A stretch of DNA of 64,000 nucleotides from a virus, in the UHGV virus genome UHGV-0042229. One strand, given 5' to 3'. Below are positions 1,686-52,466 of this stretch, one piece after another. The stretch's first letter is position 1; each line of letters begins with the position of its first letter. A program made the translations under genes and the position numbers. The notes beneath the pieces were generated by a model. It searched no databases. It was not told where the DNA came from and saw nothing but the letters and a program-made list of their open reading frames with translations.

Positions 1686-2537
1686 ATGATAAATTATGTC
1701 TACGGCGAACAACTGTACCAGGAGTTCGTCAGCTTCAGGGATCTCTTTCTAAAAAAAGCTGTTGCACGCGCCCAACACGTTGATACAGCCAGCGACGGTC
1801 GTCCTGTACGCCCGGTTGTCGTTCTACCGTTCAAAGAAACTGACAGCATTCAGGCTGAAATTGATAAATGGACTTTAATGGCGCGGGAACTGGAACAGTA
1901 CCCAGACCTCAATATCCCAAAGACTATTTTATATCCAGTGCCTAACATCCTTCGCGGTGTGCGTAAGGTTACAACTTATCAGACAGAGGCTGTGAACAGC
2001 GTCAACATGACCGCTGGCCGCATTATTCATCTGATTGATAAGGACATTCGCATCCAAAAAAGCGCGGGGATCAATGAGCACAGTGCGAAATACATAGAGA
2101 ACCTGGAAGCAACAAAAGAGCTAATGAAGCAGTACCCGGAGGATGAAAAATTCCGTATGCGCGTACACGGCTTTAGCGAAACAATGCTGCGCGTCCACTA
2201 CATTTCCAGTAGCCCTAACTACAATGATGGTAAATCAGTTAGTTACCATGTGCCACTGTGTGGCGTGTTTATCTGCGATGAAACTCTCCGTGATGGAATT
2301 ATCATCAACGGTGAATTCGAAAAAGCAAAATTTAGCCTTTATGACTCTATAGATCCGATCATCTGCGACCGCTGGCCGCAGGCAAAAATATATCGCCTGG
2401 CAGATATTGAAAATGTAAAAAAACAAATTGCCATCACTCGCGAAGAGAAAAAGGTCAAATCAGCCGCATCAGTTACGCGCAGCCGTAAAACCAAGAAGGG
2501 GCAGCCAGTAAACGACAACCCCGAAAGCGCGCAATAA
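1686..2537 (+). CDS. c1: C1 repressor of lysis (283 aa)
   Basis: 283-aa ORF starting MINYVYGEQLYQEFVSFRDLFLKKAVARAQHV..., recognised as P1 C1; cognate 17-bp operators recur across the window. Confidence 0.92.
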   Translation: MINYVYGEQLYQEFVSFRDLFLKKAVARAQHVDTASDGRPVRPVVVLPFKETDSIQAEIDKWTLMARELEQYPDLNIPKTILYPVPNILRGVRKVTTYQTEAVNSVNMTAGRIIHLIDKDIRIQKSAGINEHSAKYIENLEATKELMKQYPEDEKFRMRVHGFSETMLRVHYISSSPNYNDGKSVSYHVPLCGVFICDETLRDGIIINGEFEKAKFSLYDSIDPIICDRWPQAKIYRLADIENVKKQIAITREEKKVKSAASVTRSRKTKKGQPVNDNPESAQ

Positions 2538-2569: not shown

Positions 2570-3685
2570 TTATTCAGCCGCCACCGGTTTTAACAAGCCA
2601 GCATCGAGCAGTTTACGCGTCAACCACTGCTGGCCTTTACCCGTTAATTGAGGCGTCAACCGTATCTGGTAGCCATCTTCATCATCCAGCACCACTTCTT
2701 TCACCGTGAAATACCCCGCGTTGATGTACTGCTGGAACGGCACATTTTTACGTCCACCGGACGCTATCAGGATGCCGTTCTCCCGTAACCAGACAAACAG
2801 CGCGTTTTGCTTAAGTCCAACAACCTTTGCAAAATTCCCAATCAGGATCCCTTTAGCTACTGATACCCGGTCGGCAAAATCGACTTTAGGAGCGGCGGCC
2901 ACCAGCTGCTGATTTAGCTGGTGGGCTTTCTGTTCCAGAAGCTGCTTTTGTTCAGCCAGTTCGGCAGCCAGGCGCAGAGCTTCTGGAAGCGTCTGGGGGA
3001 TTGCAACCGGTTGCTGTTCTTTTTGCCGGAAGTAGCTGTCTTCCAGTTTTTCAAAGAATGCCCATGCCTGATCGGTTTCGAGCATTTTAGCGTGGCGGGC
3101 TGCGCCGCGTTCCGTCCAGAGGATGAGTGAGCGGGCTTTAGGAGAGATAGGATTTTGTGAGTTACTTAAAGTCACCCGCAAATTGTTCAAATCATCTCCA
3201 ATAACTTTATAGAAATGCTTACCTTCACAAAAACGTTCAGCATTACGGGAAAAGTTCTTCTTGATGTTATCCGCATCTGTCCCATACCCCTTAGCAAGGA
3301 TCTTAGTTGTCACTACACGCACTCCCTGCCACTCTAGAACGGGAATTTCATCCGGCTGACTTTGAACAACCACCAGTTCTGATTCCTGAACTAAAGGTGT
3401 ATTAATTTTTTCAGATTTAACGTTAGTAGCTTTCATTCTGTGTGCCTCCTTGCGTGTTTCGGCTGCGACGGTTGCGTAATTCAGATGCCCCTGTTCGAGC
3501 AGGTATTCACGGATATCAGACAGCAGGATACGGTGAACAGCGTTCTTGTCCTTTCTCCGGTAAAGTTGTTTGGTGATCATGAAGTAGTTGGCAATAACGC
3601 CAGGTATATCCCTGGTACTGATACAGGCAGTGTGCTGTTCAATTGCCTCGATCATCTCTTCACGGGTAACTAACGATGTTCTCAT
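2570..3685 (-). CDS. Antirepressor-like protein (371 aa), second ant copy
   Basis: N-terminal ~90 aa and C-terminal ~130 aa (PQTLPEALRLAAELAEQK...GNFAKVVGLKQNALF...QIRLTPQLTGKGQQWLTRKLLDAGLLKPVA) closely resemble the immI Ant at 50874-51917; central domain differs. ATGA overlap with upstream icd-like ORF. Confidence 0.75.
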   Translation of the reverse strand: MRTSLVTREEMIEAIEQHTACISTRDIPGVIANYFMITKQLYRRKDKNAVHRILLSDIREYLLEQGHLNYATVAAETRKEAHRMKATNVKSEKINTPLVQESELVVVQSQPDEIPVLEWQGVRVVTTKILAKGYGTDADNIKKNFSRNAERFCEGKHFYKVIGDDLNNLRVTLSNSQNPISPKARSLILWTERGAARHAKMLETDQAWAFFEKLEDSYFRQKEQQPVAIPQTLPEALRLAAELAEQKQLLEQKAHQLNQQLVAAAPKVDFADRVSVAKGILIGNFAKVVGLKQNALFVWLRENGILIASGGRKNVPFQQYINAGYFTVKEVVLDDEDGYQIRLTPQLTGKGQQWLTRKLLDAGLLKPVAAE

Positions 3686-3903
3686 AGTCCCTCCTGAGCA
3701 GAAGCGTTAACAGGGAGGCACCAGTAACTGAGAGAATTGCGTGAATCAGTGGAAAAACGGGCAGAGAAAATACATGGGGCGTCAGGAAGCTGAGAGCGGG
3801 CCTCATCTTCTGTCGGTGCAATAACGAAGTGATAGTGACGTTTTTGGCAGGAGTAAAAGCGCCAGATAAATTCAGGATGAGTTGGGGTAGGGATAGTAGC
3901 CAT
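3682..3903 (-). CDS. Icd-like protein (73 aa), second copy
   Basis: From ATG at 3903 with AGGAGG RBS: MATIPTPTHPEFIWRFYSCQKRHYHFVIAPTEDEARSQLPDAPCIFSARFSTDSRNSLSYW..., highly similar to the 73-aa icd at 51914-52135. The track ORF 3682-4131 is an in-frame upstream extension. Confidence 0.6.
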   Translation of the reverse strand: MATIPTPTHPEFIWRFYSCQKRHYHFVIAPTEDEARSQLPDAPCIFSARFSTDSRNSLSYWCLPVNASAQEGL

Positions 3904-3959
3904 ATTGGCAGCCTCCTTAGACGTTGGTATGTAACCACCGCAGAAGAGACCAATCTTGC

Positions 3960-4050
3960 TGGCGGTGGACTGTACGGAGTTGGCCTTACTGGCGTCCAAG
4001 GTAACCAGCCTACCCGAAGGTAGCCCCATACAGCCCACCATTGTAGAGGT
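3960..4050 (-). ncRNA. Putative c4-like antisense RNA of the second immunity module (approximate bounds)
   Basis: Segment aaccagcctacccgaaggtagccccatacagcccaccattgta parallels the presumed c4 region aaccagcaggccgaagcctccccatcacgccccaccataattt upstream of icd at 52226-52270; flanking loop sequence differs. Confidence 0.3.
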
Positions 4051-4222: not shown

Positions 4223-4239
4223 CAATTTATTAGAGCAAG
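4223..4239 (-). promoter_or_regulatory. C1 operator-like site just downstream of pacB stop
   Basis: caatttattagagcaag, 15/17 to reverse-complement consensus. Confidence 0.55.
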
Positions 4240-7528: not shown

Positions 7529-7545
7529 CAATACATTAGAGCAAT
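7529..7545 (-). promoter_or_regulatory. C1 operator-like site upstream of lpa
   Basis: caatacattagagcaat, 14/17 to reverse-complement consensus. Confidence 0.45.
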
Positions 7546-9579: not shown

Positions 9580-11141
9580 ATGAAAATGACAAGTATTCAA
9601 CAACGTGCAGAGCTTCATCGTCAAATCTGGCAAATTGCTAACGATGTCAGGGGTTCGGTCGATGGATGGGATTTTAAGCAATACGTTCTGGGCGCACTTT
9701 TCTACCGTTTTATCAGCGAAAATTTTTCCAGCCATATGGAAGCCGGTGATGACAGTATCTGTTATGCGAAACTGGATGACAGCGTAATTACTGATGACAT
9801 TAAAGACGATGCCATCAAAACTAAAGGCTACTTCATCTACCCCAGTCAGCTTTTCTGCAACGTAGCTGCGAAAGCAAATACCAATGACAGACTGAATGCG
9901 GATTTAAACAGCATCTTCGTTGCTATCGAAAGTTCTGCTTACGGTTACCCTTCAGAAGCTGACATCAAAGGTTTGTTTGCTGATTTCGATACCACCAGTA
10001 ACCGCCTGGGTAACACCGTTAAGGATAAAAATGCCCGCCTGGCCGCGGTTCTGAAAGGGGTTGAAGGGTTAAAGCTTGGCGACTTTAACGAACATCAGAT
10101 TGACCTGTTCGGCGATGCCTATGAGTTCCTGATTTCTAACTATGCGGCAAATGCCGGTAAGTCAGGCGGTGAGTTCTTTACACCGCAGCACGTCTCCAAG
10201 CTGATTGCACAACTGGCTATGCACGGGCAGACCAGCGTTAACAAAATCTACGACCCGGCAGCGGGTTCCGGCTCACTGTTGTTGCAGGCGAAAAAACAGT
10301 TTGATAACCATATCATCGAAGAAGGTTTTTCGGTCAGGAAATCAACCATACGACCTATAACCTGGCGCGTATGAACATGTTTTTGCACAACATCAACTAC
10401 GACAAGTTTGATATCAAGCTGGGCAATACGCTGACTGAACCGCACTTCAGAGATGAAAAACCGTTTGATGCCATCGTTTCTAACCCGCCGTATTCGGTGA
10501 AATGGATTGGCAGCGATGACCCGACGCTGATTAACGATGAGCGTTTTGCCCCGGCTGGCGTTCTGGCCCCCAAATCCAAAGCTGACTTTGCGTTTGTATT
10601 ACATGCGCTGAACTATCTTTCGGCCAAAGGTCGTGCTGCGATTGTCTGCTTCCCGGGTATTTTTTACCGTGGCGGCGCAGAGCAGAAAATCCGTCAGTAT
10701 CTGGTCGATAATAACTATGTCGAAACCGTAATTTCACTGGCTCCGAACCTGTTCTTTGGCACCACCATTGCCGTAAACATTCTGGTTCTGTCCAAACATA
10801 AAACGGATACCAACGTTCAGTTTATTGATGCCAGCGAACTGTTCAAAAAAGAGACCAACAACAATATCCTGACCGATGCCCATATCGAACAGATTATGCA
10901 GGTATTTGCCAGCAAGGAAGATGTTGCTCATCTGGCGAAATCTGTTGCGTTTGAGACTGTTGTCGCGAATGACTATAACCTGTCGGTAAGCAGCTATGTG
11001 GAAGCCAAAGATACCCGCGAAGTTGTAGATATCACTGAACTGAATGCCGAACTGAAAACCACCGTCAGCAAAATCGACCAATTGCGCAAAGATATTGATG
11101 CGATTGTGGCTGAAATTGAAGGCTGCGAGGTGCAGAAATGA
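9580..11141 (+). pseudogene. hsdM: Type I R-M methyltransferase subunit HsdM (EcoR124-like), split by a -1 frameshift
   Basis: Track ORFs 9580-10374 (motif [11 protein letters not shown]) and 10371-11141 (motif IV NPPYS) are one HsdM. Frame breaks at GGTTTTTCGG (T5, 10326-10330): window reads [18 protein letters not shown], one extra T gives [25 protein letters not shown] joining the fragments. Confidence 0.8.
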
Positions 11142-12412
11142 GCGAGTTGAGTTATCTGGAAAAATTGCTGGATGGGGTTGAGGTTGAGTGGAAATCTTTG
11201 GGTGAAATTGCCACTAAAATTTACTCAGGGGGAACCCCGGATACAAAAAGAAAAGAGTATTGGGAGAATGGAACTATTCCCTGGATGAGTTCTGGCGAAG
11301 TGAACTTAAAAAATATTGAAAGGACAGAGAAATATATTACTGAGGCTGGATTAAATAACTCTAGTGCCAAATTAGTACCGAGAAACTCTGTAGTCATAGC
11401 CTTGGCTGGTCAGGGAAAAACTCGAGGTAAAGTAGCAAGAATCCGTATCGCATTAGCTACTAATCAATCACTTGCAGCACTTACATTTGATGAAAAGAAA
11501 TTCAGTTCCGATTACGTATTCCATTTTTTAGAGACTCAGTATGAGAGTTTGCGTCAAATATCATCTGGAAACAGCGGACGCGGCGGACTAAATCTGCAAA
11601 TGATTTCAGCATACAAAATCCCAATTCCCTGCCCGGATAATCCGGAAAAATCCCTTGCCATCCAGTCTGAAATCGTTCGGATTCTGGACAAATTCAGCGA
11701 GCTTACAGCAGAGCTTACAGCAGAGCTTAACATGCGTAAAAAACAGTACAACTACTATCGCGACCAGTTGTTGCGTTTTAAAGAGGGTGAGGTTGAGTGG
11801 AAGACTTTGGGGGAAATTGGAGATTTTACATATGGATATGCAGCCAAAGCCATGGATTCAGGAGATGCCCGTTTCGTGAGAATTACTGACATAAATAAAG
11901 ACGGGAAGCTATCGAAAGAAAACCCAATGTACGTTGAATTAAATGAGGAAAATGAGAAATATACCTTAGACAAAAATGATTTACTCATGGCAAGAACTGG
12001 GGCAACCTTTGGTAAAACAATGATTTTTGAAGAAGATTATCCAGCAGTATACGCTGGTTTTTTAATAAAGTTGAACCTAAATAAAACGATTATTAATGCC
12101 AAATATTACTGGCACTTTGCACAAAGTGATTTTTTTTGGGAACAGGCTAATAAATTAGTATCTGGTGGTGGGCAACCACAGTTTAATGCTAATGCACTGA
12201 AACAAGTCAGAGTACCTATTCCATACCCATCTCACCCTCAAAAATCTTTAGACGAACAGGGGCGTATTGTGGATATTCTGGATAAGTTTGATGCAATCGC
12301 AGCTTCCATCACCGAAGGTCTCCCGCGTGAAATCGAGTTGCGCCAGAAACAATACGAGTACTATCGTGATTTACTGTTCAGTTTCCCGAAACCTGAAACT
12401 GTCAGTAATTAA
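11138..12412 (+). CDS. hsdS: Type I R-M specificity subunit HsdS (424 aa), EcoR124 family
   Basis: ATGA overlap with hsdM; two target-recognition domains separated by a central region with tandem TAEL repeats. Confidence 0.88.
11705..11728 (+). repeat. Tandem 12-bp repeat (ACAGCAGAGCTT x2) encoding TAEL-TAEL in HsdS
   Basis: acagcagagctt at 11705-11716 and 11717-11728. In EcoR124I/II the TAEL copy number (2 vs 3) sets the spacer length of the recognition sequence. Confidence 0.8.
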
Positions 12413-12533
12413 TTGACCATTGCTACCGACCGGACCACCTTAACATCCGGTCTGTATATAGACTATTTTTTACGTGCCGGAAGTCACCCTTAACTCCCTT
12501 CCGGCCCTTGCCAGACGGCACAAAGGATGCGCT

Positions 12534-15500
12534 ATGACTCATCAGACACACACTATTGCTGAATCCAATAACTTTATCGTCCTTGATAAGTACATCAAAG
12601 CTGAGCCAACAGGCGACAGCTACCAGAGCGAATCGGACCTGGAACGTGAACTGATTCAGGACCTGCGGAATCAGGGCTATGAATTTATATCCGTAAAATC
12701 TCAGTCGGCTATGCTGTCCAATGTTCGGGAACAGCTTCAGAGCCTCAATGGTGTGGTGTTTAATGACAGCGAGTGGCGGCGTTTCACGGAGCAGTATCTG
12801 GACAACCCGAGCGATGGCATTCTGGATAAAACCCGTAAAATCCATATCGACTATATCTGCGACTTTATTTTTGACGACGGGCGACTTGAGAACATCTATT
12901 TGATAGATAAAAAGAATCTCATGCGCAATAAGGTGCAGATTATCCAGCAGTTTGAACAGACGGGTTCTCATGCTAACCGTTATGACGTCACGATCCTGGT
13001 TAATGGCTTACCACTGGTACAAATCGAACTGAAAAAGCGCGGCGTGGCGATTCGTGAGGCTTTCAACCAGATACATCGTTACAGTAAAGAGAGTTTTAAC
13101 AGCGAAAATTCCCTGTTTAAGTATCTGCAACTGTTTGTCATTTCTAACGGCACCGATACCCGTTACTTTGCCAACACCACAAAGCGCGATAAAAACAGTT
13201 TTGATTTCACCATGAACTGGGCGAAATCAGACAACACGCTGATTAAAGACCTCAAAGACTTTACCGCTACCTTTTTCCAGAAACATACTCTGCTGAATGT
13301 TCTGGTGAACTACAGCGTGTTTGACAGTAGTCAGACGTTACTGGTGATGCGACCGTACCAGATTGCCGCCACCGAGCGCATTCTGTGGAAAATTAAGAGC
13401 TCCTTTACAGCGAAGAACTGGTCAAAACCGGAAAGCGGTGGGTATATCTGGCACACTACCGGTTCTGGTAAAACCCTTACCAGCTTTAAAGCCGCGCGTC
13501 TGGCAACAGAGCTGGACTTTATTGATAAAGTCTTCTTTGTGGTCGACAGAAAAGACCTCGATTACCAGACCATGAAGGAATATCAGCGTTTTTCGCCAGA
13601 CAGCGTCAACGGCTCGGAAAATACCGCAGGCCTTAAACGAAATCTGGATAAGGACGATAACAAAATTATCGTCACTACTATTCAGAAACTCAATAACCTG
13701 ATGAAAGCAGAAAGCGACCTGCCTGTATATAATCAGCAAGTGGTGTTCATATTTGATGAATGCCACCGCAGCCAGTTTGGAGAAGCGCAGAAAAACCTGA
13801 AGAAGAAATTCAAACGCTATTATCAGTTTGGTTTTACCGGCACCCCTATTTTCCCGGAAAACGCCTTAGGCTCAGAAACAACCGCCAGCGTATTTGGTCG
13901 TGAATTGCATTCGTATGTAATTACCGATGCGATTCGTGACGAAAAAGTGCTCAAATTCAAGGTGGACTACAACGATGTGCGGCCACAGTTTAAGTCTTTA
14001 GAGACAGAAACTGACGAGAAAAAACTAAGTGCGGCTGAAAATCAGCAGGCGTTTCTTCATCCCATGCGTATTCAGGAAATCACGCAATATATTCTGAATA
14101 ATTTCCGCCAGAAAACTCACCGTACCTTCCCTGGCTCAAAAGGTTTTAATGCTATGTTGGCAGTGAGCAGCGTGGATGCCGCGAAAGCCTATTATGCGAC
14201 GTTTAAACGGTTACAAGAAGAAGCCGCTAATAAATCGGCTACCTATAAACCGCTGCGTATTGCGACAATCTTCTCCTTTGCCGCCAATGAAGAACAAAAT
14301 GCCATTGGTGAAATTTCCGATGAAACTTTTGATACCAGCGCAATGGACAGCAGTGCTAAAGAGTTTCTGGACGCTGCAATTCGTGAATATAACAGCCATT
14401 TTAAAACTAACTTTAGCACCGACAGTAACGGTTTTCAGAACTACTATCGTGATTTAGCCCAGCGGGTTAAAAATCAGGATATCGATCTGCTAATTGTCGT
14501 GGGGATGTTTTTAACCGGCTTCGATGCTCCAACATTGAACACGCTATTCGTCGATAAAAACTTGCGTTTTCACGGCCTGATGCAGGCATTTTCCCGCACC
14601 AACCGTATTTATGATGCAACTAAAACCTTCGGTAATATCGTCACTTTCCGGGATCTGGAACGCTCAACTATTGATGCCATAACGCTGTTTGGTGACAAAA
14701 ACACCAAAAATGTGGTGTTAGAAAAGAGTTATACAGAGTATATGGAAGGCTTTACTGATGCTACTACTGGTGAAGCTAAACGCGGCTTCATGACAGTAGT
14801 TTCAGAACTGGAACAACGGTTCCCTGACCCTACCAGTATTGAAAGTGAAAAAGAGAAGAAAGACTTCGTTAAACTGTTTGGCGAATACCTGCGTGCCGAG
14901 AACATCCTGCAAAACTATGATGAATTTGCCACGCTAAAAGCCCTGCAACAAATCGATCTTAGCGATCCTGTTGCGGTAGAAAAATTCAAAGCAGAACATT
15001 ATGTGGATGATGAAAAGTTCGCTGAATTGCAAACAATTCGTCTCCCTGCTGATCGCAAGATTCAGGATTATCGTTCTGCCTATAACGATATTCGCGACTG
15101 GCAGCGCCGTGAGAAAGAAGCTGAGAAAAAAGAGAAATCAACCACTGACTGGGATGACGTAGTTTTTGAGGTCGATTTGCTGAAGTCTCAGGAAATAAAC
15201 CTGGATTATATCCTTGGACTGATTTTCGAACACAACAGACAAAATAAAGGCAAGGGCGAAATGATCGAAGAGGTCAAACGCTTAATTCGTTCAAGCCTAG
15301 GGAACCGTGCTAAAGAGGGCCTGGTGGTCGATTTTATTCAGCAAACGAACCTGGATGATTTACCGGACAAAGCCAGCATCATTGACGCATTCTTTACGTT
15401 TGCTCAACGCGAACAGCAACGTGAAGCAGAAGCATTGATAAAAGAAGAAAATCTCAATGAAGATGCAGCAAAACGCTATATTCGCACGTCTTTAAAACGC

Positions 15501-15650
15501 GAATATGCCACCGAAAATGGCACAGAATTAAACGAAACATTACCAAAACTTAGTCCGTTGAATCCGCAATATAAAACGAAAAAACAGGCAGTTTTCCAGA
15601 AAATCGTCTCGTTTATTGAGAAGTTTAAAGGGGTAGGCGGAAAAATATAG
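12534..15650 (+). CDS. hsdR: Type I restriction enzyme R subunit HsdR (1038 aa), EcoR124-like
   Basis: From ATG at 12534 with AAGGA RBS: [33 protein letters not shown]...; helicase motifs (TTGSGKT, DECHRSQ). Track ORF starts 20 codons upstream at GTG. Confidence 0.9.
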
Positions 15651-15729
15651 CCCAATTCGTGTTTTTCTTGCGGGTTCTTTATTAAACCCGCAAGAGATCG
15701 TGGGGTTCCAAATGGCTAATATACTCCCC

Positions 15730-15816
15730 TTACCCATGCGCGACGATGCCGCCAAAAGTGATAGAGAACAGCCAGAAATAGATCGTGGCCATAATGATTT
15801 TGAATGCCGTGTTCAT
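15730..15816 (-). CDS. Hypothetical 28-aa hydrophobic peptide MNTAFKIIMATIYFWLFSITFGGIVAHG
   Basis: ATG at 15816 with GGAG RBS 8 nt upstream; single predicted TM helix; lies downstream (minus strand) of the C1 operator at 15899-15915. Confidence 0.3.
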   Translation of the reverse strand: MNTAFKIIMATIYFWLFSITFGGIVAHG

Positions 15817-15844
15817 ATTTTCAGCTCCAGTGATTGATTGGATA

Positions 15845-15875
15845 CATGCCGCGCCTTGCGGCATGTTTTTATTTT
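15845..15875 (+). terminator. Rho-independent terminator after the hsd operon
   Basis: Stem catgccgc/gcggcatg with 5-nt loop followed by tttttatttt. Confidence 0.6.
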
Positions 15876-15898
15876 CACTTTCTCTGTTTTAAAAATCA

Positions 15899-15915
15899 AG
15901 ATTTATTAGAGCAAT
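15899..15915 (-). promoter_or_regulatory. C1 operator-like site
   Basis: agatttattagagcaat, 16/17 to reverse-complement consensus; followed on the minus strand by TTGATT-N17-GAAAAT. Confidence 0.6.
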
Positions 15916-16421
15916 TATTGTTGATGGAGAAGCGCGTTTTCATACTCCCTGACCATTAACGTAAGTACGCCGTGACTCCTGAAAACACGCGCCACTTCAA
16001 TCTTATCTTCCAGCGCGAACGCGATTTTACTTAGACCAATTTTCTTAAGGAGATCAATCTTTGCTGGGCCGTCATTTCTGTCATCGGTGGCAGGACGCAT
16101 AGATAGCAAAGGCTCAGCCCCATTTGTTACGTGCTTACGCAACCAGGCTCGTGTTTTATCCCTGGCTATCTCACAGCGCCCGGTTACAAACCAGAGGGTG
16201 TAAATGCCGGACAACTGGCGCACCATATCAATAACTGGAGTGATGGGAGCATCAGTGTCACAGGCGAGATTAAACTCGTTCCAGTCCTTTGTTAATGCAC
16301 CTTTACCTGGTGGCGGAAGCAAATGCAGTCTGTCTTCAGTTGCCTCTGATATTGTTCCATCAATATCGACTATGACGATATACGGACGTTCCTGGTGTGC
16401 GTGTTTATTGAAAATACTCAA
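15915..16421 (-). CDS. HAD-superfamily phosphatase (168 aa); P1 pap-like position
   Basis: N-terminal VIVDIDGTIS (DxDGT motif I of HAD hydrolases). Confidence 0.65.
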   Translation of the reverse strand: MSIFNKHAHQERPYIVIVDIDGTISEATEDRLHLLPPPGKGALTKDWNEFNLACDTDAPITPVIDMVRQLSGIYTLWFVTGRCEIARDKTRAWLRKHVTNGAEPLLSMRPATDDRNDGPAKIDLLKKIGLSKIAFALEDKIEVARVFRSHGVLTLMVREYENALLHQQ

Positions 16422-17991: not shown

Positions 17992-18008
17992 ATTGCTCTA
18001 ATAAAAAA
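17992..18008 (+). promoter_or_regulatory. C1 operator-like site
   Basis: attgctctaataaaaaa, 14/17. Confidence 0.45.
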
Positions 18009-18032
18009 CGTGATGAGTGTACATCACGTTTT
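18008..18032. terminator. Bidirectional rho-independent terminator
   Basis: Stem acgtgatg/catcacgt, loop agtgta; A6 upstream and T4 downstream. Confidence 0.5.
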
Positions 18033-18040
18033 AAAAATAT

Positions 18041-18057
18041 GGAATTATTAGAGCAAT
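18041..18057 (-). promoter_or_regulatory. C1 operator-like site
   Basis: ggaattattagagcaat, 14/17 to reverse-complement consensus. Confidence 0.45.
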
Positions 18058-35476: not shown

Positions 35477-35825
35477 GTTGTAACCCTTGAATATCAACCA
35501 CAGAAAGCTCGTCTTTGTAGAAAAAGGCCAGGTTGTGGCACCCCCTCGTTTGAGCGTATGAGCTGGGACCAATTTCGTTCTTCCAGACAAATGGCTTCAA
35601 ATCCGTACGGCGAAGCATAAAAACGCGATTTGTTCCGCTCTGATTCCCAATGAGGCAAAAGCCTTCTTTCACCTTGATAGCCTGCAAGTTGTCGAGTTCA
35701 CCGCTGGTTACACGGCTATCGAACTCCTTGCGGCTTATTAGCTCCATCTGCATCTGACGACTCCAAACAAATGCCCATTGAAGGGCGATGGCTGAATGGT
35801 ACCGAAAATACGACATAAAAAACAA
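35469..35825 (-). CDS. Hypothetical protein (up to 118 aa) between operator and rdgC-like gene
   Basis: ORF track; start uncertain (several in-frame Met). Confidence 0.4.
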
Positions 35826-35841
35826 TATTTATTAGAGCAAT
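35825..35841 (-). promoter_or_regulatory. C1 operator-like site upstream of the rdgC-dmt operon
   Basis: atatttattagagcaat, 16/17 to reverse-complement consensus. Confidence 0.6.
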
Positions 35842-50779: not shown

Positions 50780-50796
50780 AAATTTATTAGAGCAAA
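50780..50796 (-). promoter_or_regulatory. C1 operator-like site (Op53-like) upstream of kilA-repL
   Basis: aaatttattagagcaaa, 16/17 to reverse-complement consensus. Confidence 0.65.
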
Positions 50797-52449: not shown

Positions 52450-52466
52450 AAATTTATTAGAGCAGA
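52450..52466 (-). promoter_or_regulatory. C1 operator-like site (Op51-like) upstream of immI
   Basis: aaatttattagagcaga, 15/17 to reverse-complement consensus. Confidence 0.6.

Follow-up and report, generated by a model that had tools for sequence, protein, structure and literature searches.

A conserved small membrane-protein gene as the putative first cistron of the C1-controlled Op88 operon of a P1-like phage-plasmid

The 64,000-nucleotide stretch of virus genome UHGV-0042229 analysed here (the window) is from a P1-like phage-plasmid. Its segment from position 15,730 to 15,915, read on the minus strand, is best explained as the regulatory head and first cistron of the early operon that lies behind operator Op88 in phage P1, a C1-controlled unit that would encode a small membrane protein; a probability of roughly 0.68 is given to this reading as a whole. 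The evidence that carries it is comparative. In diverged P1-like elements of Salmonella and Cronobacter, in Logan contigs and in an IMG/VR contig, homologues of 46-53 residues are encoded behind an equivalent series of operator, promoter, hairpin and ribosome-binding site. The protein is kept while synonymous sites are saturated, and the start codon and ribosome-binding site are conserved; on this comparative evidence, therefore, these small open reading frames (ORFs) are genuine protein-coding genes of P1-like elements, and the family, as far as the searches reached, is confined to P1-like phage-plasmids. Very probably its members are translated and inserted into the membrane, and it is somewhat favoured that the copy in the window is still functional.

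Only relatives of at least 89% identity came back when 5.8 billion proteins were searched with the single sequence and 1.84 billion representatives exhaustively with phmmer; the diverged members were reached through synteny, with pap and pmgS as neighbours, and then through profile searches. In Cronobacter phage JK004, whose Pap is 74% identical, pap is followed by the operator ATTGCTCTAATAAATAT, the hexamers TTGTTT-17 nt-AATAAT, a hairpin GGCCGC/GCGGCC and CCAATCAATCACCGGAGC, and the small ORF MHLIFKLAITAFYAWMLTVVITSFKPDANMKASRYLGNLSASYDCDQQGDDSL has a stop codon that overlaps the ATG of the next gene. Salmonella P1-like plasmids that have no pap carry the same module after pmgS, with the 46-residue protein MHTVFKLAMAAFYIWIFTIVFTGIAKATPVNASEVGVRTIYCDLGE. 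Profile searches and contig look-ups added 53-residue forms (P0025, P0026 and P0030-P0033), with DNA obtained for P0025 and P0026 (loci L091-L093), and a DNA-pattern scan added a 48-residue form (L095) that bridges the P1 and Salmonella types; a scan of genome contigs by PmgS alignment gave two E. coli loci and no new lineage. The arrangement GGAGC, 3-7 nt, ATG is found in all lineages. The family alignment has M1, K6, A11 and W15 unchanged in all members except the window copy (A11T), and the first 24 residues are hydrophobic throughout.

Between the P1 and Salmonella small ORFs the proportion of synonymous differences (pS) is 0.89, which is saturation, and that of nonsynonymous differences (pN) 0.26; the values for Salmonella versus JK004 are 0.79 and 0.25. 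Over 53 codons, dN/dS is 0.25 for JK004 versus L091, 0.22 for L091 versus L093, and 0.22-0.39 for lineages C and D. In the two remaining sense frames there are stops, or conservation is far poorer. Nucleotide identity of the small ORF between lineage A and lineages B-D is 0.50-0.64, and there is no conserved nucleotide block inside the ORF across lineages. The 28-residue P1-type form is, by this comparison, a derivative of the 46-53-residue ancestral form in which the tail has been lost and the helix kept. The initial annotation, made from the letters alone, had pointed to homologous small ORFs in other P1-like elements as the means of checking its proposal, and the ORF does prove to be conserved in relatives.

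Among closer relatives, 80 IMG/VR loci together with the window and reference phages gave 53 distinct P1-type variants of a 209-nt core, in which ATG and GGAG are invariant. No frameshift or stop was found in the small ORF in any of the 53 variants that span it whole, the exception being L058, where a cargo junction follows codon 19. The 84 nt of the ORF have 14 segregating sites and the 98 nt of leader and promoter have 37, which makes the ORF 2.3 times less variable; its commonest polymorphisms are synonymous third positions (15739 and 15745), and the five second-position changes are all singletons. Nucleotide diversity at synonymous sites (piS) is 0.045 and at nonsynonymous sites (piN) 0.009, a ratio of 0.20, the ratio for pap in the same loci being 0.11. 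By tblastn the peptide was found in 873 plasmids, at 90% identity or more in 529 of them, more than 500 of which carry it at full length.

The peptide has a grand average of hydropathy of 1.21, its best 19-residue hydrophobic segment being residues 7-25, and AlphaFold, run on the family alignment, gives a helix at residues 2-23 (pLDDT 87-91) and a tail of low confidence. The earlier description of 28 codons preceded by GGAG and encoding one predicted transmembrane helix was borne out. Pfam, NCBIfam, PHROGs and PADLOC returned no match for the 28-, 44-, 46- or 53-residue peptides; a literature search with the peptide string also gave none, and for pmgT it gave gene lists only, the 2004 P1 genome paper lying outside that search. 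A 44-residue version starting at 15864, the one given by the program-made ORF list and adopted in automatic annotation, was discarded because the ATG falls in a hairpin stem and has no ribosome-binding site, and because the 16 additional residues are without counterpart in other lineages. Antisense ORFs, including a hydrophobic one of 35 residues at 15785-15892 on the plus strand, are not conserved and were also set aside.

The 17-mer that had been called operator-like is by sequence a true C1 site, identical to Op88. The P1 reference record NC_005856 (84293-84337) lists it as OpmgT, formerly Op88, a protein_bind feature described as a 'monovalent C1-controlled operator', followed by two predicted promoters (P2pmgT and P1pmgT) and, about 150 nt on, by pmgT-pmgU-pmgV, with no gene annotated between. 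Sequence, position after pap, orientation and repressor are all the same in the window, the operator's first base being the final base of the pap stop codon, and megablast matches 15726-16000 to P1, P7, SJ46, RCS47 and others at 96-99% identity. By this match the operator is one already known, its accepted target in P1 being the pmgT-pmgU-pmgV operon; in P1 the operon continues into those genes, whereas in the window they are gone. With up to three mismatches, 14 sites in the window match the asymmetric 17-bp C1 consensus used (ATTGCTCTAATAAATTT), against 0.34 expected from shuffles. The operator faces the small ORF as claimed, lying upstream of it on the same strand, and the repression in the lysogen that had been proposed would be the expected behaviour, since a cognate, 99% P1-like C1 is encoded in the same element. 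The operator is kept in diverged lineages, in JK004 as given above and in L091, L092 and L093 as ATTGTTCTAATAAATAT. In these last three an inverted second copy, TTTATTAGAATAAT, follows 7 nt on, some 60-100 nt upstream of the small ORF, making a two-site operator as against the single Op88 of P1.

For the plausible -35 and -10 elements the outcome is mixed. The predicted hexamers are those of the P1 record, and the geometry TTG(A/T)TT-17 nt-NANAAT adjoins the operator at the same place in five diverged lineages (A-E). Both promoters are nevertheless weak, and neither was called by the consensus scan; P1pmgT matches the consensus at 8 of 12 positions by manual count. In the leaders of other lineages, inspected by eye, the -10 of P2pmgT is poorly kept.

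Each lineage has a GC-rich hairpin of its own sequence 4-7 nt after the -10, and in the window the minus-strand hairpin lies at or beside the predicted 5' end of the Op88 transcript. In a gap-free alignment of lineages B-D, to which the formal pair count is limited because MAFFT could not align the P1-type hairpin with the others, both sides have changed in four of the seven pairs and 96% of cells are paired, a level reached in one of 500 shuffles; slid registers are 14-54% paired. Within the P1-type copies three of five stem changes are C-to-T, giving G.U in the minus-strand RNA and A.C in the RNA of the opposite strand, and the L091 hairpin likewise has a G.U pair. Because these wobble changes pair on the minus-strand RNA only, selection acts, on this evidence, on the hairpin of the sense transcript. 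The simplest role for it, given the position of the predicted +1, is most likely that of a 5' stabilising stem-loop. Read on the plus strand, the same hairpin with TTTTTATTTT (15867-15876) constitutes a canonical intrinsic terminator 194 nt past the hsdR stop, the first downstream of hsdR in the window; the run that completes it, an A-run before the hairpin on the minus strand and a T-run on the plus strand, is present only in the P1-type lineage. Between hairpin and TGGAG the minus strand reads ATCCAATCAATCAC. The CA-rich spacer here is far better kept than either the promoter spacer or the hairpin sequence (L086-L088, L091-L093 and L095), and it may enhance translation or bind an RNA or a protein.

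Downstream of the small ORF, homology to P1 ends after TAAGGGG, 4 nt past the stop, and the hsd cassette runs from 15725 downward, so that the peptide had rightly been placed at the edge of the hsd island. The genes hsdM-hsdS-hsdR (9580-15650), flanked by phd/doc and by the Op88 leader, replace the P1 stretch from pmgT to humD; hsdR is convergent with the small ORF, which is the sole cistron left of the Op88 operon. This junction is already described for type IC loci. According to notes in NC_005856, the DNA downstream of hsdR in EcoDXXI and R124/3 shares 96-98% identity with P1 84263-84482, and P1 87969-88647 has its match upstream of hsd in EcoDXXI; P1-homologous flanks of the EcoR124, EcoDXXI and EcoprrI loci are attributed to Tyndall et al. 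(1997, Mol Microbiol 23:729) in PMC12707154. The layout is the same there, with hsd between the Op88 leader and the phd promoter and junctions at P1 84482 and 87969. In the accessible text of the published work the flank is treated as DNA homology, and a conserved small protein gene within it is unstated.

The pmgT-humD stretch is variable region 8/H of P1-like phage-plasmids (PMC9603915), and the same region of cargo exchange is concerned here, its fixed left border being the small-ORF stop codon. After TAAGGGG, 73 classified IMG/VR loci carry a P1-type pmgT (30), a shorter pmgT-like gene (25) or the hsd cassette (18), and P1 itself, which has no hsdR, keeps the small ORF. In JK004 and L091-L093 the stop overlaps the next start as ATGA, and in P1 and Salmonella the spacing to the next gene is 7-10 nt. 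Because the next gene abuts or overlaps its stop across lineages, the small gene would be a 5' end that stays fixed in front of variable cargo; in P1, the ribosome-binding site of pmgT comes directly after the stop.

On structural grounds, transcripts of hsdR would span the entire small ORF in antisense, since the first canonical plus-strand terminator is the leader hairpin. Op88 transcripts would in turn enter hsdR in antisense, because the hairpin in the hsd-cassette flank has no U-tract and a terminator scan found no minus-strand terminator downstream of the small ORF. This flank hairpin is preceded by a T-run on the plus strand and followed by an A-run on the minus strand, and it accompanies hsdR in phi456 and in IncF plasmids.

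Table 1. Coordinates in the window of the Op88 module and of adjoining or related features.
Feature	Position	Strand	Remarks
C1 operator ATTGCTCTAATAAATCT	15915-15899	-	16/17 against C1 consensus; base-for-base P1 Op88/OpmgT
Predicted promoter P2pmgT	15886-15914	-	-35 TTGCTC 15914-15909, within operator; -10 TAAAAC 15891-15886
Predicted sigma-70 promoter P1pmgT	15871-15899	-	-35 TTGATT 15899-15894, overlapping last base of operator; 17-nt spacer; -10 GAAAAT 15876-15871
GC-rich hairpin ACATGCCGC-AAGGC-GCGGCATGT	15844-15866	both	terminator scan and fold
CA-rich single-stranded spacer CCAATCAATCAC	15830-15841	-	hairpin to ribosome-binding site; core AATCA[CT]NGGAGC in all lineages
Shine-Dalgarno GGAG	15825-15828	-	8 nt before ATG; TGGAG in window, AGGAG in most relatives
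Small ORF MNTAFKIIMATIYFWLFSITFGGIVAHG	15816-15730	-	28 codons + TAA; ATG 15816-15814, TAA 15732-15730
GGGG after small-ORF stop	15726-15729	-	last bases common with P1; pmgT ribosome-binding site in P1
Hairpin of hsd-cassette flank	15666-15695	both	10-12 bp; no U-tract on either strand; not a canonical terminator
hsdR, type IC	12474-15650	+	near-identical to EcoR124I HsdR; 2297 bits to 2w00, full length
pap	15915-16421	-	HAD-type polynucleotide 3'-phosphatase homologue, upstream of operator; stop TAA 15917-15915
c1 repressor gene	1686-2537	+	280/283 residues same as P1 C1 (99%)

The following course of events is proposed. Operator and -35 overlap at what would be a weak sigma-70 promoter, so bound C1 would block transcription; when C1 is inactive or absent, as on infection or induction, leftward transcription would start from about 15864-15879. 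The RNA would begin with the GC-rich stem-loop, for which covariation argues and which may act as a stabiliser, and continue through an unstructured CA-rich spacer to a good ribosome-binding site, and the first product translated would be a small single-pass membrane protein. In this element the cargo would have been swapped for the convergent type IC hsdMSR, with the small-ORF transcript running antisense into hsdR and hsdR transcripts ending at the leader hairpin read from the opposite strand. We infer that the peptide enters the inner membrane early in lytic development, where it would act on the membrane or on a membrane protein, and that it is dispensable rather than a classical toxin.

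Several observations weigh against this reading. The genes pmgT, pmgU and pmgV are non-essential in P1 (PMC10695390), from which nothing positive follows as to function, and P1pmgT and P2pmgT are weak predicted promoters that the scan did not call. The P1-type protein is without the conserved hydrophilic tail of the ancestral form. The 3' end of the ORF has been rewritten repeatedly by cargo junctions after codons 18-19, 24-26 or 28, and in L004 (IncF plasmid pEco1162T7a, 3960-4085) an IS1 end has removed the first two and a half codons. The window copy, finally, has Thr at residue 11, where all other aligned family members have Ala, and TGGAG in place of AGGAG, and its exact peptide occurs in only 8 of the 873 plasmids. 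In view of the lost tail, the rewritten 3' ends and the start removed by IS1, the helix-only form may be only weakly useful. The altered copies are compatible with an accessory protein that can be dispensed with, or with a remnant in the contexts concerned, and leave room for toxicity of the intact form.

These altered copies differ in kind. A junction after codon 18-19 in L058 (about 3150-3165) and in P0007, P0028, P0035 and P0036 gives chimeric C-termini; other copies have a junction after codons 24-26 or a replaced stop codon. Such junctions lie inside the small ORF, so the stop codon does not mark the border of the variable region in every element. In L004, a conjugative plasmid, the type IC hsd cassette retains the small ORF from codon 3 onward, without start codon, ribosome-binding site, hairpin or operator.

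An alternative is to regard the P1-type ORF as a decaying remnant, a gene of 46-53 codons truncated when P1-type cargo was acquired, in which the RNA leader and the hsdR terminator would be conserved instead of the protein. The tail, well kept elsewhere, is indeed lost here, many C-termini are altered at junctions in addition to the copy decapitated by IS1, and the window copy has private changes at A11 and beside the ribosome-binding site; low synonymous diversity (piS 0.045 against 0.145 in pap) also hints at nucleotide-level or hitch-hiking effects. Such decay is however difficult to reconcile with a piN/piS of 0.20, with second-position changes that are singletons and common polymorphisms that are synonymous, or with frame, start and GGAG intact in every full-span P1-type variant save L058. 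The ORF is moreover less variable than its adjoining leader, and full-length copies of high identity persist in hundreds of plasmids, so this explanation is considered unlikely.

A slightly less likely possibility is that translation itself is what matters, the ORF serving as a coupling or leader peptide that opens or protects the mRNA, feeds ribosomes to the next gene and perhaps tethers the mRNA to the membrane, with no target for the peptide. Wherever the cargo is on the same strand, the stop overlaps the following start codon or abuts it, and the ORF is always the first cistron after a structured leader. Coupling does not call for a conserved amino-acid sequence over and above an open frame, and here the sequence is conserved with synonymous sites saturated; the invariant K6, A11 and W15, and the 29-residue tail conserved in two lineages, would be needless for it. 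Elements of the hsd type, furthermore, keep the ORF with its full signals and have nothing to couple to.

The initial annotation had likened the product to small membrane toxins, and in the sense proposed there toxicity is doubtful: there is no match to a toxin family, no antisense promoter or small-RNA family was found, the ribosome-binding site is accessible in the fold, and decapitated or tail-swapped copies occur in many plasmids. The type I toxins (Ibs, ShoB, TisB, DinQ, Hok, Ldr and ZorO) are 19-50 residues long, with one hydrophobic helix and tight repression, and TisB and DinQ are also under a protein repressor. In size, hydrophobicity and single helix the peptide is like those of the Ibs, ShoB, TisB and DinQ type, and LexA-repressed members provide a precedent for a protein repressor acting on a small toxin. 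An arrangement of type I character can accordingly be drawn, in which a membrane-damaging peptide is silenced by C1 and by the antisense 3' end of hsdR reaching the leader hairpin; given the plus-strand terminator at 15844-15876, hsdR transcripts would pair with the small mRNA over its full length. The small ORF nevertheless differs from type I toxins in sequence and in having no dedicated antisense RNA that could be found. A consensus scan gave no plus-strand promoter-like site inside or just beyond the ORF, and Rfam, run on 15300-16300 at a permissive threshold, gave chance-level matches only (GcvB, 16.5 bits, and psRNA6); Pfam, NCBIfam, PHROGs and PADLOC, as noted, recognise no toxin family. 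In the minimum-energy fold as in the centroid fold the GGAG/ATG region is largely unpaired. The T-run on the opposite strand is restricted to the P1-type lineage, and a hairpin on that strand would be broken by the wobble changes in the stem. P1 keeps the ORF without hsdR, antisense RNA could come only from hsdR read-through and only in hsd-type elements, and this scheme is judged improbable.

More improbable again is an early-lytic membrane effector, whether toxin or inhibitor of a host membrane protein, that is wired to the restriction cassette in hsd elements. Were that so, the 3' end of hsdR in the lysogen would be a full-length antisense to the peptide mRNA and the induced Op88 transcript an antisense to hsdR, and the two would switch each other off, a hybrid of repressor, cis-antisense control and small membrane toxin at the border of a defence hotspot. 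A role of the peptide in regulating the type IC enzyme, which its co-occurrence with hsd loci might suggest, was rejected as unsupported, as IS1 has removed the start codon in L004 and 339 plasmid matches fall in the same 80-90% identity band. A holin or single-gene lysis peptide was also considered, and the neighbours pmgS, pap and hsdR (pmgT in P1) include no lysis gene.

As for the alternative likening, to small regulators, the inner-membrane proteins MgrB, AcrZ, MgtS, MgtR, KdpF and PmrR, like small membrane proteins of phages, are single-pass proteins of fewer than 55 residues, some with a short soluble tail, that usually bind a larger membrane protein. The small-ORF family is like these in its single helix; it has no homology to them and is found in P1-like elements. 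Small phage proteins have been reviewed (PMC11323111).

Few phages have been annotated as thoroughly as P1, and even so the stretch figures in its reference record as an untranslated pmgT leader. To judge from the records and papers accessible, it is new that the P1 'leader' holds a conserved small membrane-protein gene, and new likewise that the P1 cargo region has a fixed border made up of the small gene, its 5' hairpin and its stop codon. On the preferred reading, that of a C1-controlled first cistron, a small membrane protein that is conserved would join the early genes under C1. The cargo swap would have an exact fixed border, consisting of promoter, 5' hairpin, small gene and stop, at which defence systems such as type IC restriction enter and which would explain the piece of P1 found beside type IC hsd loci on other plasmids and on chromosomes. 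The biological pay-off hinges on what the peptide does.

Some further features of the window and its relatives may be recorded. The real start of hsdR is probably residue 21, at 12534. The hsdM gene is split into overlapping plus-strand ORFs at 9580-10374 and 10371-11141, one base being missing from GAAGG-TTTTT at 10326 by comparison with the hsdM of phi456 (96% identical); unless a sequencing error accounts for this, the methylase is out of frame, and the entire type I enzyme is affected with it. In non-P1 lineages (L086, at 3733-4047, which is JK004_93; L087, L088 and L091-L093) the gene after the small ORF encodes a 104-residue protein that has winged-helix (MarR/TrmB) matches and one to the PHROG 'Ren-like exclusion protein' (E 7e-4), all of them weak. 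The 3' end of pap is unusually variable among P1-type elements, with eight segregating sites in the final 18 nt, or six codons (15918-15935), and the tblastn alignment of pap to P1 ends at residue 163 of 168. The 13 other C1-operator-like sites, which probably correspond to the remaining known P1 operators, lie at 1028-1044, 1111-1127, 1575-1591, 4223-4239, 7529-7545, 17992-18057, 21665-21681, 31515-31542 (an overlapping inverted pair), 35825-35841, 50780-50796 and 52450-52466.

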